Below the pieces are notes generated by a model. That model was not told the DNA's origin. It did no database searches and was given only the letters and a program-made list of their open reading frames with translations. Of a stretch of 64,000 nt of DNA, positions 10,749-42,199 are shown piece by piece. A program made the position numbers and the translations under genes. Origin of the DNA: a virus (taxonomy: Duplodnaviria > Caudoviricetes); IMG/VR virus record IMGVR_UViG_3300046786_000293, positions 274,511-338,510 of that record; one strand, 5' to 3'. Each line of letters opens with the position of its first letter. Positions within the stretch are counted from its first letter, which is position 1.

Positions 10749-11375
10749 TTATTCCTCGATTGTAAATTGCCGCAAATCTGCGTATTCAACATATTTTGGT
10801 TTAGGCTTATTTTCTTTAACGCCCTTTAACAACGCTAACCCCCATTCTGCTTCTTCGGGTCGCGGTTTGTAGTGATAACCTATCTTAAATACTTTTTGAT
10901 CAGTCCACGGTTTAATATTTAGGTCGCGACCGTCATACCGCATACGAATTAATGCTTCATATGCTTGTGCATCGTCTAATAGTATAGCACCACCTCTGCC
11001 TATATGTAAAGGTTTATCGTGTCCAAAACTCAAACATTGAATCATTCCAGGGCGATACATATTTTGTTCTAGTCGACGAGCACTATCCCAAATGCGAGTA
11101 AGTTCGAACTTATACTCGCCAACCCAGTGTTGACGATGTGACACAGTGTCGGGGTAGTACTCGTACTTGATACCTAATTTATGCATGGTCATTGGAATGC
11201 TAATATAGGTATACGGCGTAAATGTACATTGTTTAATGTTGTCGTAGCGCATACACATTTCAATGGCATGGGTACAACAATCAGTCATAATGGCATAAGG
11301 TGCGCCAGTAAACTCTGCCAGTTCTCGTTCGAACTGAAAAATTTTATCAAAACCTGTTAACGAGCTCATTTGCAC
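10749..11375 (-). CDS. short DegT/DnrJ/EryC1/StrS-family PLP-dependent aminotransferase
   Basis: FERELAEFTGAPYAI..DCCTHAI, WDSA, SFGHDKPLHIGRGG (PLP lysine motif); only 208 aa. Confidence 0.75.
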   Translation of the reverse strand: MQMSSLTGFDKIFQFERELAEFTGAPYAIMTDCCTHAIEMCMRYDNIKQCTFTPYTYISIPMTMHKLGIKYEYYPDTVSHRQHWVGEYKFELTRIWDSARRLEQNMYRPGMIQCLSFGHDKPLHIGRGGAILLDDAQAYEALIRMRYDGRDLNIKPWTDQKVFKIGYHYKPRPEEAEWGLALLKGVKENKPKPKYVEYADLRQFTIEE

Positions 11376-12414
11376 TAAAAAACTTTTCCGTTAAATCCAA
11401 TGCCTGTTGTTTAATCAACGGCAAATAACTATCATATTCTTCGATATAGGATGTAATACGATTACAAATATCTGTTTTGTTGGCTACATAACTGTCCCAA
11501 GTAATAGTCCAGTTACTGGGATATTTAAACCGGTCGGTGTACATTTCTGAATAGGACAATCGATCAGGCACCATGGGAATAGCATCTACTAATGCACCTT
11601 CGTAACATCCGATACCCAATGTTTCTTGTAGACTAGCACTGAACACAATCTTTGCTTCGCCGAGAATATTATGATATTCATTCTTTGTTAGTGCTTGATC
11701 CTGACAAACAACAAATTCATACTGGGGCAGTTGTTCTTTAAGATCTCTAAATATTTCAACTTGCTTCTCAGGCGCAATACGATGCGGGAATACAACAAGG
11801 TTGCGCTTAGTCATACCTTTGTATGGAGCAAGAGTTTGGTCCATATACTCCATGGGCCAACCAGTGCGTACAATCTTATCGTTGTCGTGATTTTCTCGCA
11901 AACCAACAATACAACCTAGTAGTTCTTCACAAAACAATTCGATGTGAAAGTCTGTAGCAAAGTAGTTATAATCAATAGCGTGGAAGAAACTCTTCTCTGC
12001 ATGACGTACCCATGGGGTGTTACCAATTAACCGACCTAGAAAGTCGTGGGGATCATAACTACCAGCATGCCACAATGCGTGAATCTTAACTGGTGTGTTA
12101 AGAAGTTCACTCATATACTTTAAGTTTATGATGCCAGGATGCCAAGCATCAGTAAACAAAAAATGATCGCCAGGCTTAACTGCTCCGGAGCAGAATAAAC
12201 GGCCCATTCCTTCAACTTGAGCAGACTTATAGATATTAGTCCCACCAAAGTTAAGAAAAGCACCAGGAGTGGTTGCACTAGGGATATCCGTAGGACCAGC
12301 AAGAATTTGAACATTGTGTCCGGCCTTTCTCAGCAAGTTAGGTACGTGATCTTTCCACTGAGCCGTGTAGCGTGTTTCTACAGGCTCAAGATCTATCAAA
12401 AAGATATTAGCCAT
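11347..12414 (-). CDS. GT-B fold glycosyltransferase (GT4-like)
   Basis: FPHRIAPEKQ and QETLGIGCYEGALVDAIPMVP (EX7E-type C-terminal motif). Confidence 0.8.
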   Translation of the reverse strand: MANIFLIDLEPVETRYTAQWKDHVPNLLRKAGHNVQILAGPTDIPSATTPGAFLNFGGTNIYKSAQVEGMGRLFCSGAVKPGDHFLFTDAWHPGIINLKYMSELLNTPVKIHALWHAGSYDPHDFLGRLIGNTPWVRHAEKSFFHAIDYNYFATDFHIELFCEELLGCIVGLRENHDNDKIVRTGWPMEYMDQTLAPYKGMTKRNLVVFPHRIAPEKQVEIFRDLKEQLPQYEFVVCQDQALTKNEYHNILGEAKIVFSASLQETLGIGCYEGALVDAIPMVPDRLSYSEMYTDRFKYPSNWTITWDSYVANKTDICNRITSYIEEYDSYLPLIKQQALDLTEKFFSANELVNRF

Positions 12415-12610
12415 TTGCTCGTTCGGCTTGTCTCATTTGCCAGTTACGAGTCTTTTCAAATTTGCGATATTGCTCGCTTTTATAAAGATCGCGCTCGTCA
12501 AACTTTAACATATTAAAACGACAGTAATCTTTATACTGCTCAAGATCATCAAAGATCCTGTTGACTTCTGGTTTAATTTTGAGATATTTCTCTACCCATT
12601 TTTCAGCCAT
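12407..12610 (-). CDS. hypothetical protein
   Basis: 67 aa ORF after RBS AAGGA. Confidence 0.65.
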   Translation of the reverse strand: MAEKWVEKYLKIKPEVNRIFDDLEQYKDYCRFNMLKFDERDLYKSEQYRKFEKTRNWQMRQAERANG

Positions 12611-12621
12611 TTTATTTTCCT

Positions 12622-13071
12622 TTAGATTTTAACACTAAGATTAGGTCGGTGAGTTTCATATTTAATAAGTGCGCCGTTTTCACCATCTTCAGCCACTTCA
12701 ATCCAAACTGCCCGATTGGGATACCGTTCAGCAATTTGTAGATATAAGTCATCTGCAATCATTTCGCAGGATTTGTAGTCGAGTTTGAGGATTCCGCCTG
12801 CGTAGAGATTTTCGAGCCAGCGTTTGAATTGGATGAACTCGATGTCTCTGTCATTGTGTACAACATCAATCCACACCCGGAAATGGAAGATATGGCGGTG
12901 AGGACTGCCAAGGAAACTAACGTCATACTCATCGCCCGTCGCAAGTTCGGGTGCTGTTGCGGCTGCTGGATAGCAGTGTATTCCTTCTTTGCGGAAGGTA
13001 ATCCAGATTTTTCGTTCTGCATGTTGCTTGATTCTTTCAACAGTTTCTCGGTCAGTTGCGTTCATTTTCAT
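12622..13071 (-). CDS. dpdL: QueD-paralogue T-fold protein, DpdL-like (putative CDG decarboxylase)
   Basis: EGIH...LGSPHRHIF matches LxxxHRHxF in place of the QueD CxxxHGH motif; DIEFI. Confidence 0.6.
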   Translation of the reverse strand: MKMNATDRETVERIKQHAERKIWITFRKEGIHCYPAAATAPELATGDEYDVSFLGSPHRHIFHFRVWIDVVHNDRDIEFIQFKRWLENLYAGGILKLDYKSCEMIADDLYLQIAERYPNRAVWIEVAEDGENGALIKYETHRPNLSVKI

Positions 13072-28756: not shown

Positions 28757-31048
28757 TTACTTTCCTTGCCTTGCCAACATTGCTGCATTACTTAGTGCTG
28801 TTTTTAGAGCAGGTGCAGATTGCGGACTTTCTGCAGCCTTGGCAATTAACGGTGTTAGTGCGCTCATAGACATAGATTCAGGCGAAGTTAATGGTTTATT
28901 ATCGCTTATTTTTGTAACTGCACTGCTTAATGTATTTGTATCTACTTTTGGACCTAGTACACTAGATAAACCGCTCATCGTGCTTTTGGCAGTAGATACA
29001 TCTTGCATTTGGTCTAATTGTTGTTGTTTTACAGCAGCAGGATCTTGTTGTACGCTTGTTTGGCTTGTGATTTGTATATCTGGATCCTGTTTATTAACTG
29101 CGGGATCTTCTACTTCATTTGTCTTTTTGCGATCTAACGCACGTAATTTTTGTGCAAGTTTGGCTATATCTACTGGACCATGTTCACGTTCTTGTTTTTG
29201 TACAAGTTTTTTAACACGAGCAATCATGTTATCAAAATCATCTGGATCATAGCGGCTTGCTATTAAATTGTCATCTTTGTTTTCTTTCATTCCTGAACGA
29301 TACCCTGTGTGTTGTACGTGTACTGGATCATTGGGGAGAAATCCTAAATTATACTTATCACCCTTTGGATCATTTTTTGCCAACCAATTGCGTAATGCCG
29401 CAATTTGGTCTGCTCTTGCGTCAATTGCATGGGCTTTGTGGCTTTCGGGATCTTTAGGAGGAGCCCCGTAAACACCAGGTCTTCCTGCTTTATAATCTCG
29501 ATGAAGTTTTTCCTGTTCTGCGGCTGTTCTTGCTGAGCTAGTAACGGTTATTGGTATACCCGAATCTTTGCTGGCACGTTCTAAATTAGATCTGAATGTT
29601 GAATCTAATTTTGTATAACGATCAGCTTGTTTAGCATCGGCGAATCCGAAGTGACTAGGAGAAGTATCTAATGCTTCGATGTTTTTTGGATTTTTTACGT
29701 GCCAACGACCGTCGTCTGACTTGTAAGTACCGTCAGATTGTTTAGTGAAACTTACGTTAATATTTTTTGTTGGATCTGAAGGATCCTTTACATCTCTGAA
29801 TAACTTGGTTCCTGGAAGATGTCCAGTAATCTTAGTAGGAGTTTGTTGATCTGCAGGAGTAGATGCAGCAGCCGAGGCCTGGCTTGGGACTGTTTGAGTA
29901 GAAGCGGGTGCAGGTGCGGCTGTTTTAGTTGCCGGTTGAGTAGCAGTAGGCGTAGGTGCAGAACTTGCGGCGGTTTTGTTAACAACTCGTTCACCGGGTG
30001 ACAAAGAATCTGCCGTGCTCACCGAAGGAGTTGGTGTTGTACTTCTTGTAGTCGGTGCCGCCGAAGTGTTTGTTCGTGTAGATGTTGCAGGAGTTTGAGC
30101 ATTGGGGTCAACGCTACTACCACCAATTTCACCTCTTCGTACTTTTGCAGCAATTTTTTCTAATGTGTCCCCGGGACTAACTATATGCTTTTCGGTGCTT
30201 CCAGGTAATTTAATTTCTTGCCCGGGATAAATTTTATTAGGATTCTTGATAGCTGGATTACTCTTCCAAACTTCTTGCCAACTTCCTGGAGCAGGATTTT
30301 TTGGCATTTGTGGAATAACTGGAGCAGCAGGTTTGGTTGGTGCTGGCGCGGTTGCAGTTGTGGCTGGGGGCAAAGGTTGTGAAGTAATTTTAACGGGCTC
30401 TGCGACAGGTTTAACTTCTGGACCAGGTACAACGGTGCTAGGTGCAGGTTGTGCTACAGGTTGTTGTGCTACGGTAGTTCCTGGTTCGCGTGCTATACTT
30501 TGATCTCTGTCCGGACTTACTAGATCTGCTGCCTTTGCTACATTAATTTGACCACCAGAGCCAACTGGTGCGCCTGAGCCACTTCTAACTGGCTCACCGG
30601 TACTTGTTTGTACTACAGGGGGATTTTTATCTAAGTATGTTCTTATTTCATCTTGTGTAGCAGGTTGCATACCCATACGTTGACGAACGATAGGATCTAT
30701 TCCTGTATATGTAGGAGTCTTACTGGCATTCCATTGTTTATCTAATTCTGCTTTAGGTAAATCAGGACCACTGGAGGCTCTTAACGCTGCCCAATCATTT
30801 GCTGTATTATTGGTTTCTTCTTTAAACTTATTAAATTTTTCTAATAAGGACCACTCGGTGACTTTTTCTTTAGCAGTATTGTGTAGATCTTTTATTATAC
30901 TTTCTTCGCAGCCACCGACCATTTTAGATTTGGCTTTGCTAGCAGGATCAGTACCTTTCCAGTAGCCGGGAAATTTAGGACCTGTAGATTTTTTAGCAGC
31001 CTTTTCCATGCTATCTACTGCTTCTAAAAGTTTACGCATATTGGTCAT
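28757..31048 (-). CDS. putative virion/ejected protein with permuted LysM and M15 (D-Ala-D-Ala/L-Ala-D-Glu) peptidase domains
   Basis: Leader MTNMRKLLE; NPNKIYPGQEIKLP/VSPGDTLEKIA; VTSSARTAAEQ..SHKAHAID..PVH; long Pro/Thr/Ala linkers. Confidence 0.75.
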   Translation of the reverse strand: MTNMRKLLEAVDSMEKAAKKSTGPKFPGYWKGTDPASKAKSKMVGGCEESIIKDLHNTAKEKVTEWSLLEKFNKFKEETNNTANDWAALRASSGPDLPKAELDKQWNASKTPTYTGIDPIVRQRMGMQPATQDEIRTYLDKNPPVVQTSTGEPVRSGSGAPVGSGGQINVAKAADLVSPDRDQSIAREPGTTVAQQPVAQPAPSTVVPGPEVKPVAEPVKITSQPLPPATTATAPAPTKPAAPVIPQMPKNPAPGSWQEVWKSNPAIKNPNKIYPGQEIKLPGSTEKHIVSPGDTLEKIAAKVRRGEIGGSSVDPNAQTPATSTRTNTSAAPTTRSTTPTPSVSTADSLSPGERVVNKTAASSAPTPTATQPATKTAAPAPASTQTVPSQASAAASTPADQQTPTKITGHLPGTKLFRDVKDPSDPTKNINVSFTKQSDGTYKSDDGRWHVKNPKNIEALDTSPSHFGFADAKQADRYTKLDSTFRSNLERASKDSGIPITVTSSARTAAEQEKLHRDYKAGRPGVYGAPPKDPESHKAHAIDARADQIAALRNWLAKNDPKGDKYNLGFLPNDPVHVQHTGYRSGMKENKDDNLIASRYDPDDFDNMIARVKKLVQKQEREHGPVDIAKLAQKLRALDRKKTNEVEDPAVNKQDPDIQITSQTSVQQDPAAVKQQQLDQMQDVSTAKSTMSGLSSVLGPKVDTNTLSSAVTKISDNKPLTSPESMSMSALTPLIAKAAESPQSAPALKTALSNAAMLARQGK

Positions 31049-33015
31049 TTTATTTTTCTTTTATCGTACGGTACTTTAAAGTCATTGATAAATTCTTTAA
31101 ATTCTTTAACAGCTCCAGGTATACCTCCAGGAGTTATTCTATGTAAACGTTCAATCCAGTCGTCATTTTTTGAACTACCAGATCCTACTCCTGGCCCAGT
31201 ACCTGTTCCTACACCGCCACCGGTACCTCCGCCGGACCCACTGCTTTGTTGTGAATCTTTTTCTTTATCTTTACCAGACGCTGCGGGCGCAAAGGTAGGC
31301 TCGCTTGCTGGTTTTTGCTGTGGTGTTGCTTGTGGCTTAACAGGCTCAGGTTGCGGCTTTACTTGAGGTTTAGTAGGCTCAGGTTGCGGTTTTACTGGTT
31401 CAGGCTCAACGGCAATGTCTGCGGGTTTTGTAACTGGAGGCAAATCTTCTGGTCTCCATATTTCGACAGGCATCGGTACAGTTTGTGATGTTGGTTCTGC
31501 GGCAGGTTCTTGATCTACTTTGCCTTGCCCTTGTCCTTCTTTACCGCCGCCGCCTGTAGTCATTGAAGCACCCACAGGCACAGCCGCTGGGCTCCACATT
31601 TTTTTATCGCCTTGCATTTTGGGCGGTAAAGGTTCGTCAGCTCTTGACGTCGATGTTGGAGGTTTAATTGGCTGGTCATCCCCTGGTCTTGTTTGCATTA
31701 ATTCTTGATCTCGGCGACGGGCCTGTGCTTGTGTGCGTGCGGGATTAATTCGAATTGGATTGGCTATAATAGGAGCATTGGCTGAGGTTGTTGCTCCCGG
31801 TGCAACTTGAGAAGGCTCATTAACAACTTTTAATCTAGGTTTTGGCCCTGCAGGAACTTCTGCACCTTGTGGCATAGCTGAAGGTTGTCCCGCTCTTTGA
31901 TAAGCAGGAACTTCAACATTTGCTGGTGTGCGAGGCACAGGTCCCGGAGTAACTCTTGGTCCACTTACTACAGCCCCGCCAGCTCCGCCTGGCGGAAACT
32001 CTAAAGGTATTGTAGTTGGTTTAAAAGGACCTTTGGTTTGTTCTTTTAACTTTCGGCTGCTAATAGGAAAGTTTGTACTTAAAAATTCTTCAAATTCTTC
32101 AGCAACCTTTTTAGTTGCTTGCTCTTTGATCGCTCCAGGTATACCACCCGGTGTTATTCTATGTAAACGTTCAATCCAATCCCCGTCGGGAGTTTTATAA
32201 TATGTTGGTTCTTGTTGTGCAACTGCTACCGGCGCCGCAGCTAATTGCCCAGGTCTACCCGGACCTGATGGTTCGTTAGGTCTTGTTGCTAGTTGTGTCT
32301 GCGGGGCAAGTTCGGGCTCGGTGTCGGGCTGCGATGATGTTGCTATACCACGCTGTTGTAATAAATTTAATTCTGCTTTTAAATTGGGATCATCGGGAGT
32401 CTTTTCGAGTTCACGTCGGACGTCCTTGGCATACTGTTGATCAGCAAATGATGGTTTGTTCCCACCGCCTGCGGCAGTAGAATACACGTTTGAGTATTCA
32501 CTTCCTGCGCCAACTTTTACACGAGGTTGTGGCTTTGTTAAAGTAGATACTGTGGCAGATTGTTTTGGTATGCTAGGTTCATTTGCTGCAACCGGTGCAG
32601 CCTTTGCAAATTTAGTGTCCGGTCCAGTACCGCCAATTACACCCAACGGTTGCGGCGGAGTTGTACCAGCAGCCTTTCGCATATAGGCCGGTTCTTTAGC
32701 ACCTTTTGGATCTAACCATGGTTGCTTAGGTGTATATGCTGGAGTTTCTGGATCTATAGAGGGCGGTAATGTAAGTGGTAATGATTTTTGCCCAGGTGCA
32801 GGTGTTGTTGCCCCGGTAGCAGGCTTCTGTGTTGGCTCGACAGGTTTTGTTAATTGCTGACCCATCATATTGAATGCTTTATTACCGGCTGGTATGTTAG
32901 TTAATGTACCTATGGGTAACTTTTGTTGAGAGGGAAAATCATAGACTTTTTTCGCCGCCTGTCCTTGTTCGGCAAGTTTATCTAATGACTCTAACAAACG
33001 ACGGATGTCTGACAT
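31045..33015 (-). CDS. Pro/Gly-rich putative internal head protein
   Basis: Leader MSDIRRLLE; low complexity; duplicated DWIERLHRITPGGIPGA(I/V)KE. Confidence 0.7.
   Translation of the reverse strand: MSDIRRLLESLDKLAEQGQAAKKVYDFPSQQKLPIGTLTNIPAGNKAFNMMGQQLTKPVEPTQKPATGATTPAPGQKSLPLTLPPSIDPETPAYTPKQPWLDPKGAKEPAYMRKAAGTTPPQPLGVIGGTGPDTKFAKAAPVAANEPSIPKQSATVSTLTKPQPRVKVGAGSEYSNVYSTAAGGGNKPSFADQQYAKDVRRELEKTPDDPNLKAELNLLQQRGIATSSQPDTEPELAPQTQLATRPNEPSGPGRPGQLAAAPVAVAQQEPTYYKTPDGDWIERLHRITPGGIPGAIKEQATKKVAEEFEEFLSTNFPISSRKLKEQTKGPFKPTTIPLEFPPGGAGGAVVSGPRVTPGPVPRTPANVEVPAYQRAGQPSAMPQGAEVPAGPKPRLKVVNEPSQVAPGATTSANAPIIANPIRINPARTQAQARRRDQELMQTRPGDDQPIKPPTSTSRADEPLPPKMQGDKKMWSPAAVPVGASMTTGGGGKEGQGQGKVDQEPAAEPTSQTVPMPVEIWRPEDLPPVTKPADIAVEPEPVKPQPEPTKPQVKPQPEPVKPQATPQQKPASEPTFAPAASGKDKEKDSQQSSGSGGGTGGGVGTGTGPGVGSGSSKNDDWIERLHRITPGGIPGAVKEFKEFINDFKVPYDKRKIK
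31103..32181 (-). repeat. ~59 nt direct repeat (31103-31161 and 32123-32181), 1020 nt apart
   Basis: Both copies encode DWIERLHRITPGGIPGA(V/I)KE; differences are mostly synonymous. Confidence 0.9.
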
Positions 33016-33785
33016 TACTTTGCCTTTGTTTGCTTTTGCTTGTATGTACCGCCAAACAACGAACCTACTTTGGCTTTGTTCTTTGCTGGGGGATTCACTA
33101 CAGTGGCCACGCTGCCTGCTGACATTTCATTCACTGTTGCTTCCGCCACACCTTTCCAGTCAGTTTCGCCGCCCAAATCATCAATATACATTGCTTGTTT
33201 GATAATGTTCAGTAGATACTTCTTTGCTTCTGGTGTAGGTGCCATCTTAGCATATTGCTTTGCTGTGTAGTCGTCACCATTCTCTAACGCATCTCTAACA
33301 TCTTGCTCAAGGCGTGTTGTGTCAGGATCCCATCCTTCTGCCACACCTTGTTCACGCTCTGCCTGACGCTTTGCCCAACGCTCTTTGTTGCGCTGAACTT
33401 GTTGAGGACTTGCTTTCTTTTCTTTGCTTAGGTCACGATGCAGTGCTTTACCTAGTGCGCTAGTATGCGGATTCTTTTCAGACTCCGCCACAGGCATAGC
33501 ATCGCCAACTACGGCAACTACTTCTTCAGCAGGACCACCGCTCATTAATTGATATTCTAAGTGTTCACGGACGGTGTTTAGATAGTCTGCAGCCAGGGTA
33601 ATTTTACTGCTTACCCAACCTTCTAAGCCTTGTTGTTCACTAACATGGCGTAGTAGTTTGTGTAATGCAATTGCGTCTTCTGCAGCATGATACAGTTCTT
33701 TTCGAGCCATTTGCACTTCATGATCTAAGTGCATTTCGTGTGCATCTTCGGCAATGCCTTCATTTAAAAAATCTAAACTTTTCAT
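33015..33785 (-). CDS. modular putative internal head protein
   Basis: Leader MKSLDFLNEGIAE; PVAE, QGVAEG and KGVAEA linkers. Confidence 0.72.
   Translation of the reverse strand: MKSLDFLNEGIAEDAHEMHLDHEVQMARKELYHAAEDAIALHKLLRHVSEQQGLEGWVSSKITLAADYLNTVREHLEYQLMSGGPAEEVVAVVGDAMPVAESEKNPHTSALGKALHRDLSKEKKASPQQVQRNKERWAKRQAEREQGVAEGWDPDTTRLEQDVRDALENGDDYTAKQYAKMAPTPEAKKYLLNIIKQAMYIDDLGGETDWKGVAEATVNEMSAGSVATVVNPPAKNKAKVGSLFGGTYKQKQTKAK
33140..33348 (-). repeat. two further copies of the AGGTGTGGC(G/A)GAAG linker repeat
   Basis: 33140-33153 exact, 33335-33348 one mismatch; 195 nt apart. Confidence 0.9.
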
Positions 33786-33808: not shown

Positions 33809-33814
33809 TATTTA
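33809..33814 (-). promoter_or_regulatory. late-promoter-like TAAATA box
   Basis: AATAAATA overlapping the stop of 33812..34123, upstream of the internal-protein genes. Confidence 0.55.
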
Positions 33815-34123
33815 TTCGCTGATAACGAATCGACCTTTTGATGGGGATTCCACAATAATATCGTCTACCATTAAGTTGGTGAAGTAAAACCCTCTAAAAC
33901 TTGGATCTAGTGATTCTAATTTGACTTCATGATTCCCTGCAGTTAAATTAACCCATATGTTTTCTTTTACAAATTGTCCATTAGTTGTAGTAGGAGGTTT
34001 TGCATTAGACCAAATATATGTACGTTCAGTAATTAAATCACCGTCTAAATAAATTCTATAAACTGGATTTTCGTTGCCGTGTTTATGACAAAAAACATCT
34101 ATATTGATTTTATATTCTTTCAT
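33812..34123 (-). CDS. hypothetical beta-rich protein
   Basis: MKEYKINID start with an ATGA overlap to the upstream stop. Confidence 0.65.
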   Translation of the reverse strand: MKEYKINIDVFCHKHGNENPVYRIYLDGDLITERTYIWSNAKPPTTTNGQFVKENIWVNLTAGNHEVKLESLDPSFRGFYFTNLMVDDIIVESPSKGRFVISE

Positions 34124-36726
34124 TTTTCTCTGCCTCGACGCATATTTGCTTGCCAATGTGCTAATTGTTTTTTACGGGGACTAGCAGTTTTTGAACGTGT
34201 AATTTTATCTAGAGTAGACAAACTTGCTTTTTTGGGAATACCATGTCTTGCTGAATCGCCTTTGTCTTGGGGATTACGACCGTCAGCAAAGTTTTCTGCC
34301 ACGTTGAATGTTGGATCTACTTTTTGACGCGGCATATTTTTAGGCTGATTAGGATCAACGGGATCTATATCTGTAGTAGTTAGTCCAGTTTTTTCTAAAT
34401 CTTTAATATACTTGTGTTCTTCTTCTTCGCTACCAAAAGAAAACATGGTGCTAGGAGGTCCCTTTCCAAAGTCATGTTTGCCTAACCCTTTTAAGTTACT
34501 AATATGCTGTCCTAGCTTATACCAATCATAAACGTCCGATACATCTACTCTGACAGATCCTTGAGGCATAGTGGGTTTAAATTCTGGGCCGTAGGGAGTG
34601 TCGTTTGGGTGTCTATCTTCGTTCTTCTTTCTGCCAGCACAGTGAGCTTTTTGACTAAAGCCTTTGGGATCGGAGCAATTAATAGAACTCTTATATTCTT
34701 TGCTCCACGATTCGTCTAACTCTAACGGCTTAGATTTAATAGCGTTGGGATACTTCTTGTTGAAGTGCCGCATAATAATACCAGCGACCCAATGTGCTTC
34801 GTTTTCAATTGGACTTCCAGTATCACCTGCACCGTCATACATTTTACCTTGTTCGTATTGTTTGAAGTGTACCATTTCATGTGCTAGTGTTCTTAGAATA
34901 TCTACAGGGTGCCTATCGGCAATGCCAAGATATATTTTTTCTTCTTCATTAACAAAACGACCGAATGTTGCTTGCCCGTCGTTGGATTTGATGTGCGGTT
35001 GTAAAACAATATGTGGGATTTCTTTAAGTTTAAGTTCTTTCATTGCCAAGGGCATAAACTCTTTAATCATCGCCATCATATCTTCTTCAGTAACACTACG
35101 ATTATTTTTTGCTTCTTCTTTAACAACATTGCCTAAAAATGTACGGGCAAATGTTTTACACATTTTTACAATAGCAGGATTACGTGTTTGCATAACATGA
35201 AATGTTTTATTCATGTCTTCTTCTTGTGTAGGGTCTTTATATCCGCAATATACTTTGTGGCAGTCTGTATCGTTAATGATCTCTGTGCAACTGTCTCCGT
35301 AACGATCGTCCATCGGGTGACAGCATGGACTTAGAGTTGTAAGAATAATACTGCCTGCAGGTACACGACCGTGCTCTGCTTCGTAGTTCATTATTGCGGC
35401 ACGTTCGGCATGTATACGTTTGTCCTTACCGTCGTCGAAGTAGTTAATACCAAAGGCGAAATTATTATCAGGATCAAGTACACAGGCTGCAACCATGCCA
35501 AATGCATCGGCGTTTAGTTTTTGTCCCTCTACTACCATTTCGCATAAGTTAACTAGGATATGATCCAATTTGTCAAAGTTTTTAATTTCAAAATCTTCGG
35601 GGTTTATTCGCGCTGAGAAATCTTCTGCCAGTCTAAAATCACGTAGCATATTTTTTGGTGTGCGAGGCTTAACATCTTTAGTAATGCTCATCGAATATCT
35701 TGGGTCTTTGGCCATCTTCTTATTCTTAGCCACAACACCGACTCCGGCAGCATCCTCTGACATTTCTTGCTTTAATGCACGAATAACATCTCCTGCGAGC
35801 TGAGTTAAACTACGTTGGGGTCCTGCTTGAAAAACTTTTTGGGCTAAGTTTTCAACATACTCGTTGCCAAATTTTTCAAATATACCAGGTTGCATTTCAC
35901 GCAAAAATTCTAATATCTGTGCAGTTCTATCTTGGTCGAATTCTTTCCAATCGTGATAATGTTTTTCGTCTGTTTCTTCTATGTCAGCAATTTCATGAAA
36001 TACCCTTGCACCGCTAATAGGACTAGAACTATAGTTACTGTCAACTTGTCCTATGTCTTCACTGACTGCGGCAGGAATCTTATTAAAAATATGTACTAGT
36101 TCAGACGTAGCACGGCCATATAATCCTGCCAAAAATTCTTTTGAGGATTCCGGATCATTCCGTACCATATTCCACAAATTACGACATTCTGTGCCGTGAC
36201 TCACATCATATGTTTTGCCTTTGATGTTTACCGCTTTTTTAATTTCGGGGATAACAATCACATAACCGTGTTGGTCGGCAGTCATCGGGGCGTGACTTTC
36301 ATCCCATGTTTTGTAATAGCTTGCGCTGCCTGCAGGCTTGATTACGTTTCCGTCTTTGTCTTTTTGATCACGCTTTGTAAATGTATCGGGATTTAAGCGA
36401 TCTTTATCGGGGGCACCTACAGCAGTAACAAATATAGTACTGGAAGGATCAAATCCTGCAGGTAGCTTGTACATTTGATTTGTTTCAATGATGCGATCAC
36501 CGGGCACGCCGGCTGCTGTCATTAATTGGTATTTGTCGGAAAAGTTAAATGGACTTTTAGCGCTAGACTGGTCATTACTAGTTAAAATGTAGACGCTGTC
36601 GCGACCAAATTGCTTTTGTAATTTTGCAAAAACTCCGGCGTGCCCTTGGTGAAAAGGCTGAAAACGTCCAGGATAAGTTACAACAACTTGTGGCTTACCA
36701 GCCTCATATAATTCGTGTGCGTACAT
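34120..36726 (-). CDS. multidomain putative cargo polyprotein: HIGH nucleotidyltransferase, Zn-deaminase and HExxH metallopeptidase
   Basis: YPGRFQPFHQGH; HAE...SPC(x11)C; LAHEMVH; domains delimited by VSE, MSE, LAE, VTEE, LDE and VAE. Confidence 0.75.
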   Translation of the reverse strand: MYAHELYEAGKPQVVVTYPGRFQPFHQGHAGVFAKLQKQFGRDSVYILTSNDQSSAKSPFNFSDKYQLMTAAGVPGDRIIETNQMYKLPAGFDPSSTIFVTAVGAPDKDRLNPDTFTKRDQKDKDGNVIKPAGSASYYKTWDESHAPMTADQHGYVIVIPEIKKAVNIKGKTYDVSHGTECRNLWNMVRNDPESSKEFLAGLYGRATSELVHIFNKIPAAVSEDIGQVDSNYSSSPISGARVFHEIADIEETDEKHYHDWKEFDQDRTAQILEFLREMQPGIFEKFGNEYVENLAQKVFQAGPQRSLTQLAGDVIRALKQEMSEDAAGVGVVAKNKKMAKDPRYSMSITKDVKPRTPKNMLRDFRLAEDFSARINPEDFEIKNFDKLDHILVNLCEMVVEGQKLNADAFGMVAACVLDPDNNFAFGINYFDDGKDKRIHAERAAIMNYEAEHGRVPAGSIILTTLSPCCHPMDDRYGDSCTEIINDTDCHKVYCGYKDPTQEEDMNKTFHVMQTRNPAIVKMCKTFARTFLGNVVKEEAKNNRSVTEEDMMAMIKEFMPLAMKELKLKEIPHIVLQPHIKSNDGQATFGRFVNEEEKIYLGIADRHPVDILRTLAHEMVHFKQYEQGKMYDGAGDTGSPIENEAHWVAGIIMRHFNKKYPNAIKSKPLELDESWSKEYKSSINCSDPKGFSQKAHCAGRKKNEDRHPNDTPYGPEFKPTMPQGSVRVDVSDVYDWYKLGQHISNLKGLGKHDFGKGPPSTMFSFGSEEEEHKYIKDLEKTGLTTTDIDPVDPNQPKNMPRQKVDPTFNVAENFADGRNPQDKGDSARHGIPKKASLSTLDKITRSKTASPRKKQLAHWQANMRRGREK

Positions 36727-36749: not shown

Positions 36750-36755
36750 TATTTA
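36750..36755 (-). promoter_or_regulatory. late-promoter-like TAAATA box
   Basis: GCTAAATA about 24 nt upstream of the 868 aa gene. Confidence 0.5.
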
Positions 36756-38364: not shown

Positions 38365-39118
38365 GATCGGGATTACTTAGTTTATAAATTCCGGCAATGC
38401 ATTCGGGTGCTATTAGATTAATAAAAGTTACAATTTTTTCATCTTTGGCATAAAAATATCCGCCGGGGAACCACATATGATTGCTACCTAAATGTTTTAC
38501 CAAACTTTTAGTAAGGCATACTTCGTCGTCGCCAAGATTGTACAAATAGTCTAATAGAGTCCGTTTAGTTTCGACGTCTTTAATTTTATTTTCCCTAAGC
38601 ATAATTTTATATTGAAATTCGGGATAACTCTTAAAGATAATCTCTCCTCGATTTAATATTTCTATACTTTTTTCATTTGCAGGAGAATGTATTTCTTCAA
38701 CTCTTTCGGGATAGTTTTTCACTAATAAACAGTACAATAGTTCTTGATCATTGCAATAAACTGATAAATTAGGTTCCTCTAATCTAAGTTTAATTGAACC
38801 TTTTAGTGCATTTCTAATAGATATCCAATATTCAAGTTGATCTATTCTTGCATGAACTTTCAAATATTCTACACGTCTTTGAGTATAACTACTAGACCAA
38901 GATCCAATTCTATAATTAGCAGTTGACTCCAATAAGTTTATTCGTTGATTGAGTAGATGTTCTACTCCTTTATACAGAATTTTATTGTCGTTTATAATTC
39001 TACACCCAGGTGTATGAACTACTGCTTTGTATAGATATTGATTAAAAAATTTCTTTTTTGTCTCTATACATTTAACAGTTGGATTTAATTGCGTCCAGAA
39101 CGATGTATCCATTTTCAT
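38360..39118 (-). CDS. hypothetical protein
   Basis: 252 aa ORF downstream of clpA. Confidence 0.7.
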   Translation of the reverse strand: MKMDTSFWTQLNPTVKCIETKKKFFNQYLYKAVVHTPGCRIINDNKILYKGVEHLLNQRINLLESTANYRIGSWSSSYTQRRVEYLKVHARIDQLEYWISIRNALKGSIKLRLEEPNLSVYCNDQELLYCLLVKNYPERVEEIHSPANEKSIEILNRGEIIFKSYPEFQYKIMLRENKIKDVETKRTLLDYLYNLGDDEVCLTKSLVKHLGSNHMWFPGGYFYAKDEKIVTFINLIAPECIAGIYKLSNPDL

Positions 39119-41366
39119 CCGTTAACGATTGTGTAGGGAAAACTATGTATTCGTTTTCTTTAATTTCAAATTCTAATTTATCTTTATAGTCAACATTAAC
39201 TAAACAGTTAGCAACATTTTCAAATAGAATCTTTTTACTCAAAGGCACTTTAATTAGTTCGTTAATCTTTCGACCCAACGGACGAGCACCCATTTTACTA
39301 TCATACCCTTGACTAATGATATAATCTGTAGCTGCTTCTGACAAAGTAACACGTATACGTTTATCGCTAAGTAGTTCATTCATTTCACTAACAAACTTAT
39401 AAACAATCTTACGAACATTAACAGAATCTAGTTTGTTAAACTTGATAATACCATCTAATCGATTACGAAACTCTGGCTTAAAGAAATCTTTAACAGCCTT
39501 GTCATCTTCACCTGTCTTCTCTAGACTACGACCAAAACCGATACTGTTGCGTTCGTTGTCAGCGGCTCCTAAGTTACTTGTTAGAATAACTACAGCATTA
39601 CGGCAATCTGCCTTCTTGCCGTTGCTACTAGTAATCATGCCCTCATCCATTAAACTAAGAAGCAAATTGCTAACATCCGGGTGGGCTTTTTCAATCTCGT
39701 CGAAAAGAATAATACAATTAGGATTCTTTTCAACATCACTAATAAGCAATCCGCCGCCTAAATTACCATCATCATAGCCGATATACCCGGGGGGAGCGCC
39801 AATCAGTTTTGCAACCGAGTGGCGTTCTTGGTACTCACTCATGTCATATCTTAATAGTTTCATCCCGAGATTCTCTGCCAGCAACTTTGCTAGTTCAGTT
39901 TTACCTGTGCCAGTTGGACCTAAGAATAGGAATGATCCAACCGGTTTATTCAGTGCTTTAAGGCCAGCACGTGACACATAAATTTTATCCAGCACATCTA
40001 TTACAGCCTGATCTTGTCCGTAAAGTTTACCTTTAATATTACCTTCAAGGTCTCCTAGATTTTTAACTGCATCAGTGTCTAATTGTTCTACTGGAATTTT
40101 AGTAAACTTACTTAACGAATCGATAATATGACTCTTACGAACCACAAACCCTGTAGTGGAAATTTTTAGTTTAGCAGCCGCAGTATCAATTAAATCAATG
40201 GCTTTGTCGGGTAATCTCTTATCTGTTTGATAACGAACACTAAGATCCACTGAGGCATCGATTGCTTCGTCGCTGATATCGCCGCCATGAAATTCTTCAA
40301 AATACTCTTTAAGTCCTTTAAGAATCTGTTTTGCAACTTCTGGTGTCGGTTCCTCTACAGTCATACGATAGAAGCGACGCATCAATGCACGGTCCTTTTC
40401 GAAGCTTTGACTGTATTCTTCCCAAGTGGTGCTAGCAATAACTTTAACGCGGCCCTTAGTTAATGCAGGCTTAATAATATTAGCAAAGTCTGGCCCGCTT
40501 TGGCTACCACTACCAGCGCCTCGCATAGTATGTGCTTCGTCGATAAACAAAATGGCTTTACCTTTGGCATTTAAAGCCTTGATAATTTCTTTAATTTTTT
40601 CTTCAAAGTCTCCGCGATATTTACTACCTGCAAGAATACTGCTAATATCTAAATTATATACTGTGTGATCTTTAAGATATTCAGGTACTTCACCTTTAGT
40701 AATATTAAGGGCAAGTCCTTCTGCAATTGCAGTCTTACCTACACCAGGATCGCCGACCATTAGAACGTTACTCTTATTGCGCTTGGCTAGTACCTGTGTA
40801 ATTTCGTCGATTTCGTTATTACGACCAATGATGGGATCAATACGACCTTGTTCTGCTGCATCGTTCAGGTTATCGCAGTATTCTTCTAAAATAGTATCTG
40901 CTGTGCTTCTGGTTTTCTTTTTAGTTTTGTTTTCTGCAAAATTCTTATTCCAAAAGTTAACAACTTTGGCTCGTTCTAGTCCAAATCTAACTAACAGATA
41001 TCGAGCATAACTCTTATCTTCTGCCATAATACTAAGGAATAAGTCAATAGTTTGCAAGTTTTGTCGTCCACTAAACAGGACTTGTGTAAATGCTCTATTA
41101 AACACACGTTCTAAACTGTGCGTTTTTTTCGGAACAATGTCGTATCCTTTACTAATTAGAAATGTTTGAGTAGTTAAATAATCATCTATTTCTTTTATAA
41201 GTAGATCTACATCACAACCAAAGTTGACTAGTATTTCTTTAAAGGACTCATTAGTAACCATTGCATGAAGCAAATGTTCTAACGTCACATATTCGTGGTT
41301 TTTATTGGCTGCATATTGTGTAGCCGATTCGATCATTAGATCAATCTCTGGACTTGTTTGTAGCAT
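39072..41366 (-). CDS. clpA: ATP-dependent Clp protease ATPase subunit
   Basis: Clp N-domain (HEYVTLEHLL), AAA1 GDPGVGKT, AAA2 GPTGTGKT, IGF loop, GARPL. Confidence 0.95.
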   Translation of the reverse strand: MLQTSPEIDLMIESATQYAANKNHEYVTLEHLLHAMVTNESFKEILVNFGCDVDLLIKEIDDYLTTQTFLISKGYDIVPKKTHSLERVFNRAFTQVLFSGRQNLQTIDLFLSIMAEDKSYARYLLVRFGLERAKVVNFWNKNFAENKTKKKTRSTADTILEEYCDNLNDAAEQGRIDPIIGRNNEIDEITQVLAKRNKSNVLMVGDPGVGKTAIAEGLALNITKGEVPEYLKDHTVYNLDISSILAGSKYRGDFEEKIKEIIKALNAKGKAILFIDEAHTMRGAGSGSQSGPDFANIIKPALTKGRVKVIASTTWEEYSQSFEKDRALMRRFYRMTVEEPTPEVAKQILKGLKEYFEEFHGGDISDEAIDASVDLSVRYQTDKRLPDKAIDLIDTAAAKLKISTTGFVVRKSHIIDSLSKFTKIPVEQLDTDAVKNLGDLEGNIKGKLYGQDQAVIDVLDKIYVSRAGLKALNKPVGSFLFLGPTGTGKTELAKLLAENLGMKLLRYDMSEYQERHSVAKLIGAPPGYIGYDDGNLGGGLLISDVEKNPNCIILFDEIEKAHPDVSNLLLSLMDEGMITSSNGKKADCRNAVVILTSNLGAADNERNSIGFGRSLEKTGEDDKAVKDFFKPEFRNRLDGIIKFNKLDSVNVRKIVYKFVSEMNELLSDKRIRVTLSEAATDYIISQGYDSKMGARPLGRKINELIKVPLSKKILFENVANCLVNVDYKDKLEFEIKENEYIVFPTQSLTDENGYIVLDAIKSNC

Positions 41367-41371
41367 AAAAA

Positions 41372-41377
41372 TATTTA
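41372..41377 (-). promoter_or_regulatory. late-promoter-like TAAATA box before clpA
   Basis: GGTAAATA; its TAA is the dnaJ stop codon. Confidence 0.45.
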
Positions 41378-42199
41378 CCGCTGAGTTGTTATTGTATAAA
41401 TTAACTGTTTTTGATCTTCTGTCAGGTTAGTGGGAATTTTTATATTCACAGAAATGTATAAACTACCTTTAATATCATTCTGGAATCCGTTTAATCCTTC
41501 TCCAGAAATCTTTAATTTTGTTCCATGTTGGCAACCTTGCGGAGTTTGAATTATAAATTCTTTACCATCGAGACCTACAACAGTTTGTTCACTACCTAGT
41601 ATAGCCTGAAAACAATCTATTGTCAAGCTAGTAATTAAATCCAATCCGCTTACTTGAAAAGCAGGATCTGCCATAACTTGAATTATAATATATAAGTCGC
41701 CCCTGGGCAAGTTATCAAACATGTTGTCTCCCATTCCGGGATACTTCATAGTTGTGCCACTGGTAATACCTTTAGGGACAACAATATCTACGTTTTGTCT
41801 AGTGCCGTTTGCTGTTTTAATACTTAGAGTTTTATTTTGATCTGTTAATGTATCTCTAAGAGTAATAACTAATTCGGACTTAATATCTTTGTTTCTGCGC
41901 GGTGCAGGCGGTTGCCTACGACCAAACATATCAAATCCAAACTGAGCGAAAATGTCTTCCATATTTCCATTATTAAAATTAAAATGGAAATGATTTGGCC
42001 CCATTTGTTGAACAGGATTATCGTATTCTGCTCGTTTTTGCGAATCACTTAATACACGATATGCTTCTTCTACTTGTTGGAATTTGGCCGTATCGCCACC
42101 CTTGTCAGGATGATGCTGACTAGCTAACTTTCGATAAGCACGTTTAATTTCGTCGGGTGTTGCAGTTTTGGATATGCCCAAAACTTCATAATAATTCAT
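41375..42199 (-). CDS. dnaJ: DnaJ/CbpA-type co-chaperone (class II, no Zn finger)
   Basis: [19 protein letters not shown]-domain, G/F-rich region, C-terminal DnaJ_C. Confidence 0.93.

Follow-up and report, generated by a model that had tools for sequence, protein, structure and literature searches.

What does a phage do with a single protein that strings a nucleotidyltransferase, a zinc deaminase and a metalloprotease along one chain? The question is raised by an ORF at positions 34120-36726 (minus strand) of the window, the 64,000-nucleotide stretch of DNA analyzed here, which comes from the 338.5-kb genome of a freshwater jumbo phage; the ORF forms a single frame of 868 residues, open throughout. 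A preliminary description of this DNA had read the product as a cargo protein of injected enzymes separated by x-x-E junctions, and the motifs it named lie exactly where it placed them: HQGH at residues 26-29 (nucleotides 36640-36651), HAE at 439-441 (35404-35412), PCC-x10-C at 467-480 (Cys468 at 35323-35325) and HEMVH at 616-620 (34867-34881). Its view of the architecture, a chain of separate enzyme modules with Glu-ending linkers and no cellular counterpart, is likewise borne out. As argued below, we think it probable, with considerable room for doubt, that the gene specifies a late, capsid-targeted polyprotein which, by analogy with phage T4, the prohead protease would divide into individual enzymes that are ejected along with the DNA.

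The chain comprises three enzyme modules with smaller modules between and after them (Table 1). Modules 2, 3, 6, 7 and 8, as well as the HExxH module, received no name from Pfam, PHROGs or NCBIfam. Megablast against 50,697 phage records gave no match to the gene, and tblastn of phage records retrieved single modules only, in cyanophages and one uncultured phage, with no close homologue in any cultured phage. The short ORF downstream is probably translationally coupled to the polyprotein gene, and a 93-residue gene comes after the orthologue in two other jumbo-phage contigs.

Table 1. Features of the polyprotein gene and its surroundings, in window coordinates
Feature	Residues	Position	Strand	Remark
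Leader MYAHELYE	1-8	36703..36726	-	Candidate capsid targeting sequence; ends in candidate Leu-x-Glu cleavage site
Module 1, HxGH (HIGH-superfamily) nucleotidyltransferase, NMNAT/PPAT-like fold	9-223	36058..36702	-	
Module 2, acidic, mainly helical, no family match	224-324	35755..36057	-	Ends M-S-E
Module 3, 44-residue basic peptide, pI 10.2	325-368	35623..35754	-	Ends L-[AS]-E
Module 4, CDA-fold zinc deaminase, RibD-like (HAE ... PCC-x10-C ... KDPTQ)	369-537	35116..35622	-	
Spacer between candidate sites V-K-E(537) and V-T-E(547)	538-547	35086..35115	-	
Module 5, minimal gluzincin, IrrE/SprT/Wss1-like fold	548-672	34711..35085	-	Ends L-D-E
Module 6, 31-residue basic Cys-x11-C peptide (SWSKEYKSSINCSDPKGFSQKAHCAGRKKNE)	673-703	34618..34710	-	
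Module 7, phage-only, without family or fold lead	704-811	34294..34617	-	Ends V-A-E
Module 8, C-terminal tail, very basic, pI 11.4	812-868	34123..34293	-	
103-residue ORF downstream of polyprotein gene		33812..34123	-	ATG overlaps polyprotein stop (ATGA)
TAAATA box, candidate T4-type late promoter element		36750..36755	-	24-29 nt upstream of ATG

A comparison of domain content, which the preliminary description had proposed, was run on 120 homologues and revealed a mosaic in which modules are present, absent or reordered independently of one another. The HSP ends cluster at residues 223, 324, 368/369, ~535-550, 670-673, 703/704 and 805-811, which identifies the x-x-E junctions as real module boundaries. 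The polyprotein contains four [VMLI][SA]E motifs (VSE221, MSE322, LAE366 and VAE809, numbered by first residue), each of which sits on such a boundary, and 42% of homologue breakpoints fall 0-3 residues past the Glu of an [LIVMFA]-x-E, as opposed to 9.5% expected (n=1840; given the relatedness of the homologues, these counts are not independent). In divergent family members, for which motif densities were used (the projection of the module 3 end is too imprecise for counts of P1/P3 residues), [VMLI][SA]E motifs are about twice as frequent as the Asp control. The site rule is nevertheless a loose one, since P3 is non-hydrophobic at some junctions (K-N-E703, and T or A at junction 223 in some homologues). 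Neighboring genes share junctions of the same type at the protein level, spelled differently in DNA: their DNA-level 'frozen linker' AGGTGTGGCGGAAG is absent from the polyprotein gene with up to two mismatches allowed. Such Glu-ending linkers could also reflect recombination or a linker habit without cleavage.

The features that point to the phage head are found at the start of the chain and elsewhere in the genome. Close homologues retain the leader pattern M-[YF]-x-x-[ED]-L-[FY]-E, and among 63 divergent representatives (at most 50% identity) the conservation of M1, F7 and E8 reaches 90% or more, on par with the HxGH motif. MYAHELYE resembles the T4 IPII/IPIII leader MKTYQEFIAE (read from NC_000866), and such leaders open 12 of the 313 ORFs of the genome, an 11-fold enrichment over their occurrence at internal Met (0.35%). 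A gp21-family protease (Peptidase_S77, PF03420; 92.5 bits, cut-off 27) is encoded at genome coordinates C1:192411-192863, next to genes for scaffold-like and Gp23-type capsid proteins. The TAAATA hexamer upstream of the polyprotein gene recurs before the next leader-bearing gene (256 residues; at -29), the gene for the major capsid protein (-31), a portal-like gene (-24) and two further head-region genes (-50/-51), with a genome frequency of 0.38 per kb per strand; the hexamer alone is weak evidence that the polyprotein gene would be transcribed late. The gene itself is separated from the head genes by ~116 kb and belongs to a conserved block, beside DnaJ/ClpB, that encodes large proteins with leaders; neighboring genes there have similar leaders and G-V-A-E-G linkers, and the gene order around it is kept in 264-kb and 360-kb relatives.

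These observations bear on an unlikely alternative, namely that the protein is an ordinary cytoplasmic multi-domain enzyme that functions as one piece during infection (in nucleotide or cofactor metabolism, for instance), with the Glu stretches as flexible recombination linkers. It would fit the origin of all three enzymes in small-molecule or housekeeping superfamilies, as well as the stand-alone versions of the deaminase and the zincin found among the replication genes of other phages. However, such an enzyme needs no eight-residue, T4-like N-terminus conserved like an active site, nor would it be expected in a block of leader-bearing, linker-rich proteins behind a promoter box like that of head genes. 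The free change in module order and content is also hard to square with a coupled pathway, and the cargo of relatives, which includes methyltransferase, HD, HAD and amidoligase domains, extends to GNAT, pentapeptide, sigma-70 region 4, LysM+GH19 and pol-beta NTase modules that look effector-like and do not form a pathway.

Module 1 is, by the alignments, the constant N-terminal 'chassis' of the family: among 176 strong representatives the transferase domain almost always occupies residues 1-220; it is carried by ~2000 representative proteins and is 61-78% identical across 40 aligned homologues, among which G20-R-F-Q-P24, H26, G28, H29, S176, H177, G178 and R182 are invariant. Pfam assigns residues 18-82 to CTP_transf_like (PF01467, E 6.8e-8, above cut-off), and a PDB profile search matched NadM 2qjt (E 1.3e-4), with the GRFQPFHxGH motif aligned to both 2qjt and MJ0541. 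Similarly, the predicted model of the module (pLDDT 78) matched the M. jannaschii NMNAT 1f9a in VIA with Z 8.6 over 147 of 164 residues, followed by PPAT (Z 8.5) and NadM 2qjt (Z 8.1). Although motif and whole-domain fold resemble NadM and archaeal NMN adenylyltransferases, the module is not a bona fide NMNAT: it scores 26.8 bits against a cut-off of 181.2 with the NMNAT equivalog TIGR01527, only the first ~70 residues aligning, and it has no Nudix domain. Moreover, a NadV partner for NadM in the same phage is a stated rule (PMC9503650), yet a search of the 97%-complete genome for NAPRTase/NadV (PF04095), positive in eight control genomes, found none. The simple reading of NadV+NadM-type NAD salvage was rejected on these grounds, which weakens the NAD-metabolism version of the preliminary description and likewise counts against a cytoplasmic NMNAT.

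A second candidate theme was considered because the first Foldseek match of the module was PDB 3op1, which we take to be a RibF-like FAD synthetase, the entry itself being titled 'macrolide-efflux protein'. A flavin pathway, pairing a RibD-like deaminase with a RibF-like adenylyltransferase, was rejected, the match having a TM of 0.22, an rmsd of 17.5 and a VIA Z of 4.8. Our best guess is that the transferase couples AMP (or a different NMP) to a small, phosphorylated molecule resembling NMN, NaMN or phosphopantetheine.

The deaminase presents a comparable picture. Residues 406-495 match dCMP_cyt_deam_1 (PF00383, E 1.7e-10, 41.2 bits, cut-off 25), and a profile match to T. maritima RibD 2hxv (E 1.5e-4) aligns the HAE, the PC...C with its long spacer and the V-x-G-x-x-DP segment; the nearest Atlas clusters are stand-alone viral proteins of the 'RibD pyrimidine deaminase family' (150-211 residues). 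Despite these likenesses, module 4 is not a bona fide RibD: it reaches 14.7 bits against a cut-off of 156 with the RibD equivalog TIGR00326, and Pfam finds no fused RibD_C reductase domain in the polyprotein. The module occurs in only 27 of the 120 homologues, inserted between module 3 and the zincin, and its H, E and Cys residues are at least 90% conserved in these 27. Since both this module and module 1 fall far under the equivalog cut-offs and lack the usual partners, their substrates probably differ from those of RibD and NadM. For the deaminase, our best guess is a free nucleotide-like pyrimidine or aminopyrimidine, not DNA.

Module 5 is a zincin by its HExxH, downstream Glu and modeled fold. 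In the HEMVH segment and beyond it, H616, E617, H620, E641 and N642 are invariant (H78, E79, H82, E103 and N104 of the module alignment). With E values up to 1 allowed, neither Pfam nor NCBIfam assigned a peptidase family, and a PDB profile search gave only chance matches. The AlphaFold model (pLDDT 88, with low confidence at the first residues) matched abylysin, Wss1, PprI/IrrE and selecase among PDB entries in Foldseek, and the best 50 VIA matches were all zincins (Z up to 8.9), IrrE, Wss1, selecase and YbeY-like entries being tied at Z 7-9. In BFVD, the module resembles SprT-like phage proteins and, with E 3.7e-13 and TM 0.83-0.91, a phage protein labeled 'IrrE N-terminal-like'. A best guess, drawn by analogy with IrrE and ImmA, is that it would cleave a host protein, possibly a regulator.

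A peptidase within the chain raises the prospect that the protein is packaged and injected but that its own zincin cuts the junctions, in the head or after ejection. The module is nearly ubiquitous among the closest homologues (~116 of 120), where it usually follows module 3 directly, and autoproteolysis by MPTase domains has been proposed for polyvalent proteins (Iyer et al. 2017, PMC5512222). Nonetheless, we regard self-processing as decidedly unlikely: any HExxH is found in only 6 of 85 divergent members, which still keep the leader and the excess of [VMLI][SA]E motifs, and the neighboring cargo genes with G-V-A-E-G linkers encode no peptidase. A cut after hydrophobic-x-E is, in addition, the known specificity of gp21 (PMC9026906), a homologue of which is present in the genome.

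The smaller modules are more variable still. Module 2 (pI 4.6) is present in only ~40 of the 120 homologues, module 7 in ~50 and module 8 in ~64, the last also occurring as stand-alone viral proteins of ~65 residues. Module 3 is shared by 86 of the 120 close homologues and, among 110 divergent representatives, by 62; the L-[AS]-E368 at its end is invariant, and the sequences past that point are unrelated between homologues. Module 6, whose position varies among homologues, shares 79% identity with the C-terminal end of SSM2_108 from cyanophage S-SM2; the SSM2_108 gene sits between gp16 and gp17, and its product begins MKTLKQFLKE. That module 7 is an insertion follows from two homologues in which 'DVAE|NFADG' comes directly after module 6. 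An Atlas search with residues 704-868 returned only unnamed phage clusters and TM matches <0.5.

Three of the modules are basic (pI 9.4-11.4) and could bind packaged DNA like T4 internal proteins (PMC3012670), a property that, together with the high identity of the N-terminal domain, would suit a protein that builds structure or condenses DNA inside the head (a scaffold or 'inner body' component) and acts whole, its enzyme-like domains being relics. We consider this very improbable. The preliminary description had held that unconserved catalytic residues would count against its reading; these residues are in fact conserved in 27-112 homologues per module, and across the three enzyme modules the catalytic and zinc-binding residues are invariant or nearly so, which indicates that catalysis is under selection. 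Relatives can also do without most of the modules, contrary to what a structural role would suggest.

The capsid-targeted polyprotein remains the reading that we favor, and T4 suggests how it might operate. The leader MYAHELYE would dock the whole chain to the prohead scaffolding core, as the T4 capsid targeting sequence (CTS) does for IPI-III and foreign fusions. During head maturation, the T4 gp21-type serine protease would cut after Glu at the end of the leader (L-Y-E8) and at the junctions V-S-E223, M-S-E324, L-A-E368, V-K-E537/V-T-E547, L-D-E672 and V-A-E811. About seven pieces would be released: the HxGH adenylyl/nucleotidyl-transferase (24 kDa), the acidic helical module, the basic peptide (5 kDa), the RibD-like deaminase (19 kDa), the minimal zinc peptidase (15 kDa), a Cys-pair module (16 kDa) and the basic tail (6 kDa). 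They would remain in the head with the DNA, enter the cell by ejection and act ahead of any phage gene expression. In T4, gp21 cuts after L/I-x-E, anything fused behind the CTS is packaged, and CTS fusions are delivered (PMC9026906). Because only the first module carries the address, a module recombined behind a Glu-ending linker would be packaged for free, which would account for the ease with which relatives exchange cargo. The injected-cargo part of the preliminary description gains indirect support from a T4-CTS-like leader, a gp21-type protease gene, a TAAATA box and leader-bearing neighbors with Glu-ending linkers, while packaging and ejection stay predictions from these genes and the targets it suggested (nucleotide signals, NAD, defense proteins) stay guesses; by analogy, it also gains from a cytidylyltransferase in a cyanophage virion.

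That enzyme, the HxGH protein ORF154 of S-CREM2, was identified in the proteome of purified virions, where it is discussed as an NMNAT-like enzyme that is injected (PMC10665884). The S-SRM01 cytidyltransferase (of the 'cytitidyltransferase' gene family) begins MKNFHQFITE and adjoins a stand-alone, 132-residue homologue of the zincin module. Unlike the polyprotein, the cyanophage proteins are not multi-enzyme chains, and the catalytic domain of the S-SRM01 member is not N-terminal. Membership of module 1 in the same family is not supported (BLAST E ~1, hhalign probability 3.8%), the kinship being at superfamily level only.

Most likely, the polyprotein combines the logic of T4 internal proteins with the idea of 'polyvalent proteins'. 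With T4 IPI-III and Alt, the latter an enzyme cargo acting on arrival, it shares a short N-terminal leader ending in hydrophobic-x-Glu, a gp21-family protease encoded in the genome and a variable, non-essential-looking cargo. In T4, however, the cargo consists of single proteins, each with its own leader, whereas here one leader serves up to eight modules, the first a conserved HxGH transferase, and cleavage and packaging are predicted from genes. The polyvalent proteins of phages and conjugative elements (Iyer, Burroughs, Anand, de Souza and Aravind 2017, PMC5512222), as described in the available sections of that survey, similarly unite unrelated effector-type domains in one phage polypeptide, are highly mosaic, frequently include a zincin peptidase and are predicted to be delivered with DNA. 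In contrast, the 868-residue protein has no MuF, portal, ART or MPTase-PolyVal Pfam match, and it seemingly uses a T4-type leader for targeting and prohead-protease sites, not autoproteolysis, for separation; the pairing of an HxGH transferase with a RibD-like deaminase does not appear in those sections of the survey. Another comparison is with the giant phages phiKZ, 201phi2-1 and SPN3US, jumbo phages which, in the excerpts available of PMC10052503 and PMC9026906, have many head-internal proteins and diverged gp21 homologues that cut ejection ('E') or inner-body proteins at (S/A/G)-x-E, some propeptides at several sites. There, cleavage mostly strips N-terminal propeptides off single proteins, and the same excerpts describe neither several folded enzymes from one chain nor shuffling at the sites.

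A bolder proposal, which we advance tentatively and think rather unlikely as a whole, is that in the first minute the constant transferase and the RibD-like deaminase perform a so far undescribed chemistry on nucleotide cofactors of the host or on immune signaling nucleotides, within a natural 'package-and-cut' delivery platform (an eight-residue address, an exchangeable enzyme train and prohead-protease sites) whose variable modules, in their thousands, would be new pre-made counter-defense enzymes. If the capsid-targeted polyprotein is real, the T4 capsid-targeting trick, which in T4 serves single proteins, has been extended to enzyme trains by uncultured jumbo phages, and a leader plus Glu-ending linkers would be a simple sequence rule to find head-packaged, injected proteins in metagenomes. 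It would also offer a natural design for protein delivery via phage heads, and the mostly unannotated cargo of the ~2000 transferase-bearing representatives would become a candidate list of pre-transcription enzymes, for example against nucleotide- or NAD-based defenses.

The window, the final 64 kb of a 97%-complete virus record of 338,510 bp, comes from a genome that, judged by its head genes, is that of a T4-like jumbo myovirus: genes for a Gp23-type capsid protein and a Peptidase_S77 (T4 gp21) prohead protease are adjacent, with a scaffold-like gene beside them. The gene for this gp21 homologue occupies genome positions 192276-192869. The cargo protein is encoded by a single open reading frame of 868 residues (the polyprotein). 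The preliminary description had read it as a nucleotidyltransferase, a deaminase and a metalloprotease strung together, and inspection of the translated frame places every motif that it named where it had put it. In all three enzyme modules the metal-binding and active-site residues are invariant or at least 90% conserved among homologues, so the enzymatic reading is not undermined by a loss of catalytic residues; a purely structural role, which leaves this conservation unexplained, is very improbable.

The proposal that x-x-E junctions separate the modules held up well. More than 1190 proteins match the 868-aa query and, among the best 120 of them, coverage of the query is step-like, while the starts and ends of the aligned segments cluster at residues 223, 324, 368/369, 535-550, 670-673, 703/704 and 805-811. 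When the proteins were compared all against all, 42% of 1840 breakpoints (which are not independent events) fell 0-3 residues past the Glu of [LIVMFA]-x-E, against 9.5% of random positions, and all four [VMLI][SA]E motifs of the polyprotein lie on boundaries. At residue 368 the L-[AS]-E is invariant and the downstream sequence is unrelated from homologue to homologue, and homologues in which the zincin comes last terminate at about residue 670.

Features of the polyprotein and associated genes (coverage: number of the best 120 homologues that cover the query stretch given in that row, which need not coincide with the limits of the module; residues in polyprotein numbering)
Feature	Location	Strand	Remark
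Polyprotein gene	window 34120-36726	-	868 aa
HQGH	aa 26-29
HAE	aa 439-441
PCC-x10-C	aa 467-480
HEMVH	aa 616-620
Leader and transferase	aa 1-223		coverage ~106
Acidic module 2	aa 241-320		coverage ~42
Basic module 3	aa 321-365		coverage ~95
Deaminase	aa 381-520		coverage ~27
Zincin	aa 561-660		coverage ~116
Cys-pair module 6	aa 681-700		coverage ~76
Module 7	aa 701-800		coverage ~51
Basic tail	aa 821-868		coverage ~64
Leader-bearing ORF	G000:C1 (this genome) 11192-13039		outside window
Leader-bearing ORF	G000:C1 13048-13596		outside window
Leader-bearing ORF	G000:C1 66433-66807		outside window
Leader-bearing ORF	G000:C1 69452-70762		outside window
Leader-bearing ORF	G000:C1 70759-71736		outside window
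Leader-bearing ORF	G000:C1 126599-128026		outside window
Leader-bearing ORF	G000:C1 138928-139311		outside window
Leader-bearing ORF	G000:C1 139301-140686		outside window
Leader-bearing ORF	G000:C1 254375-254896		outside window
Leader-bearing ORF	G000:C1 254910-256229		outside window
Leader-bearing ORF	window 33015-33785		eleventh besides polyprotein
ClpB/ClpA-type double AAA+ (764 aa) and DnaJ homologue (274 aa)	window 39072-42199	-	just upstream of cargo block
Downstream ORF	window 33812-34123	-	103 aa from ATG (MKEYKINIDVF...)

The order of the modules also varies, and several homologues place module 6 before the block formed by module 3, the deaminase and the zincin. Behind the same N-terminal transferase, other family members carry GNAT, methyltransferase, HD, pentapeptide-repeat, sigma-70 region 4, pol-beta NTase or amidoligase cargo, the majority of the cargo being without annotation; a homologue that lacks the transferase has a HAD phosphatase and LysM+GH19 next to zincin and deaminase modules. 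Module 3, a basic peptide of 44 residues (aa 325-368, window 35623-35754, minus strand; pattern AGVGV..K....DPRY....T.DV.P.T...L..F.L.E), ranks second in conservation among the elements of the family, being present in 86 of 120 close homologues and in 62 of 110 divergent ones. It usually sits immediately ahead of the zincin and may either bind DNA or keep the peptidase latent. In Synechococcus phage S-SM2, the 142-aa SSM2_108 (L003:3683-4111, between gp16 and gp17) has a capsid-targeting-like start, MKTLKQFLKE, and ends, after F-R-E, in a near copy of the 31-aa module 6 (79% identity), which indicates that this module moves between cyanophages of the sea and jumbo phages of fresh water.

The leader, MYAHELYE (residues 1-8), is kept in close homologues and resembles the capsid targeting sequence (CTS) of T4 IPII/IPIII, MKTYQEFIAE (taken from the T4 record). 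When 1.84 billion representatives were searched with a profile, 1976 proteins with the transferase domain were returned (176 at E <=1e-30); their lengths run from 250 to 1800 aa, and the domain nearly always occupies residues 1-220. In 63 divergent ones M1, F7 and E8 reach at least 90% conservation, the level of H26, G28 and H29. The pattern M-x3-[DENQ]-hydrophobic-hydrophobic-(x)-E opens 12 of the 313 ORFs of the genome, the polyprotein included (3.8% against 0.35% at internal Met, an 11-fold enrichment), and the 11 further ORFs (starting, for example, MKINEVITE, MRASDIIQE, MRFTEIITE or MFINEVITE) look, from these starts, like candidates for head targeting spread over the genome. It is established for T4 (PMC9026906) that CTS propeptides of 10-19 residues direct internal proteins to the core, that gp21 cleaves after L/I-x-E, and that a foreign protein joined to a CTS is packaged and reaches the host cell. 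Asp in place of Glu at the end of the T4 CTS prevents cleavage (PMC9026906). The simplest model, which we consider fairly probable, is that the polyprotein would be targeted to the capsid, cut by the gp21-type protease and ejected with the DNA. The predicted cuts would leave pieces that begin at A9, D224, D325, D369, E538/E548, S673 and N812. A purely cytoplasmic fusion enzyme would leave both the conservation of the leader and the free reordering of modules unexplained, and is unlikely.

Profile libraries (Pfam, PHROGs, NCBIfam) gave no name for the zincin module (aa 548-672). Its AlphaFold model (pLDDT 88) matches only zincins (abylysin, selecase, Wss1, SPRTN, IrrE/PprI, ArdC and YbeY-like; Z <=8.9) and, in BFVD, phage 'IrrE N-terminal-like' and SprT-like proteins (E 3.7e-13, TM 0.83-0.91). 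Since HExxH and E641/N642 are invariant in the homologue alignment, the module is classed, on alignment and model, as a minimal gluzincin. Such a peptidase might process its own chain; this is less likely, with only a slim chance, because any HExxH occurs in just 6 of 85 divergent family members, yet the leader is kept regardless and junction-type motifs stand at about twice the Asp control.

The transferase (aa 9-223) matches CTP_transf_like (Pfam, aa 18-82), and a 40-homologue profile picks up, by way of the GRFQPFHxGH motif, NadM and archaeal NMN adenylyltransferases. Its AlphaFold model (pLDDT 78) can be aligned across the full domain with the NMNAT of M. jannaschii (Z 8.6, 147 residues), with PPAT (Z 8.5) and with NadM (Z 8.1). 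The domain is therefore best described, from profiles and model, as a small-molecule HIGH-superfamily nucleotidyltransferase of the NMNAT/PPAT type; it is not a demonstrable NMNAT, because NCBIfam NMNAT models score far short of the cut-off (26.8 bits against 181) and a profile search found no NadV/NAPRTase, the NAD-salvage phosphoribosyltransferase, in the 97%-complete genome. In one survey NadV was present in every NadM phage (PMC9503650). A distant relative of the domain in Microcystis phage Mel-JY01 (L006:2932-4851, 'cytidylyltransferase like protein') has GRFQPMGIHH in place of HxGH and is fused to a K-x-D-G-motif region that looks like a nucleotidyl-transferring ligase, a hint that some family members may belong to RNA/DNA end repair. 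The deaminase (aa 369-537) matches dCMP_cyt_deam_1 (Pfam, aa 406-495) and the RibD deaminase domain 2hxv (E 1.5e-4), with the HAE, PC...C and V-x-G-x-x-DP segments aligned; the Atlas clusters closest to it consist of viral proteins that stand alone and are named 'RibD pyrimidine deaminase family', and it does not qualify as a RibD equivalog on NCBIfam scores.

The polyprotein start is preceded, at 29 nt, by a TAAATA box, which also occurs at similar distances before capsid, portal-like and other head-region genes and the next leader-bearing gene. The order DnaJ, ClpB, four small genes, polyprotein gene, large proteins is conserved in contigs of 264 kb and 360 kb, and the ClpB/ClpA-type and DnaJ genes keep their relative position in two related jumbo-phage contigs. 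Because the ATG of the 103-aa ORF overlaps the polyprotein TGA (ATGA) behind a purine-rich stretch, translational coupling of the two is probable; in two other jumbo-phage contigs (L007, L008) the orthologue is followed by a gene of ~93 aa. Similar leaders and recurrent G-V-A-E-G linkers occur in the downstream genes (256, 656, 763 and 672 aa); the polyprotein gene contains no copy of this linker at the DNA level. The 763-aa neighbour (window 28757-31048, minus strand) starts MTNMRKLLEA, CTS-like, and has long Pro/Thr/Ala-rich stretches, a LysM domain (Pfam E 7.9e-7) and, by eye, a C-terminal S-H-x-x-H-A-I-D ... H-V-Q-H, which we take to resemble the pattern of VanY/M15 cell-wall peptidases; the protein may be a cell-wall hydrolase that is ejected.

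In cyanophage S-CREM2, proteomics of purified virions identified a cytidylyltransferase, and such enzymes are, per the authors, often detected in cyanophage virions (PMC10665884). The S-SRM01 cytidyltransferase starts MKNFHQFITE and adjoins a stand-alone homologue of the zincin module. This family is related to the transferase module at the superfamily level only, so its support is by analogy and not by homology. T4 internal proteins and Alt with a CTS are already known, as are gp21-like processing in phiKZ and SPN3US (PMC10052503) and polyvalent proteins (PMC5512222). The literature searched describes no case in which a single leader precedes a string of folded enzymes with prohead-protease-type sites between them, no conserved HxGH transferase that forms the constant first unit of such a chain, and no instance of the transferase-deaminase-zincin combination. 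In the model that we favour, a single leader would carry the entire chain into the prohead core, where the gp21-type protease would cleave it into about seven pieces, and these would leave the head together with the DNA at ejection.
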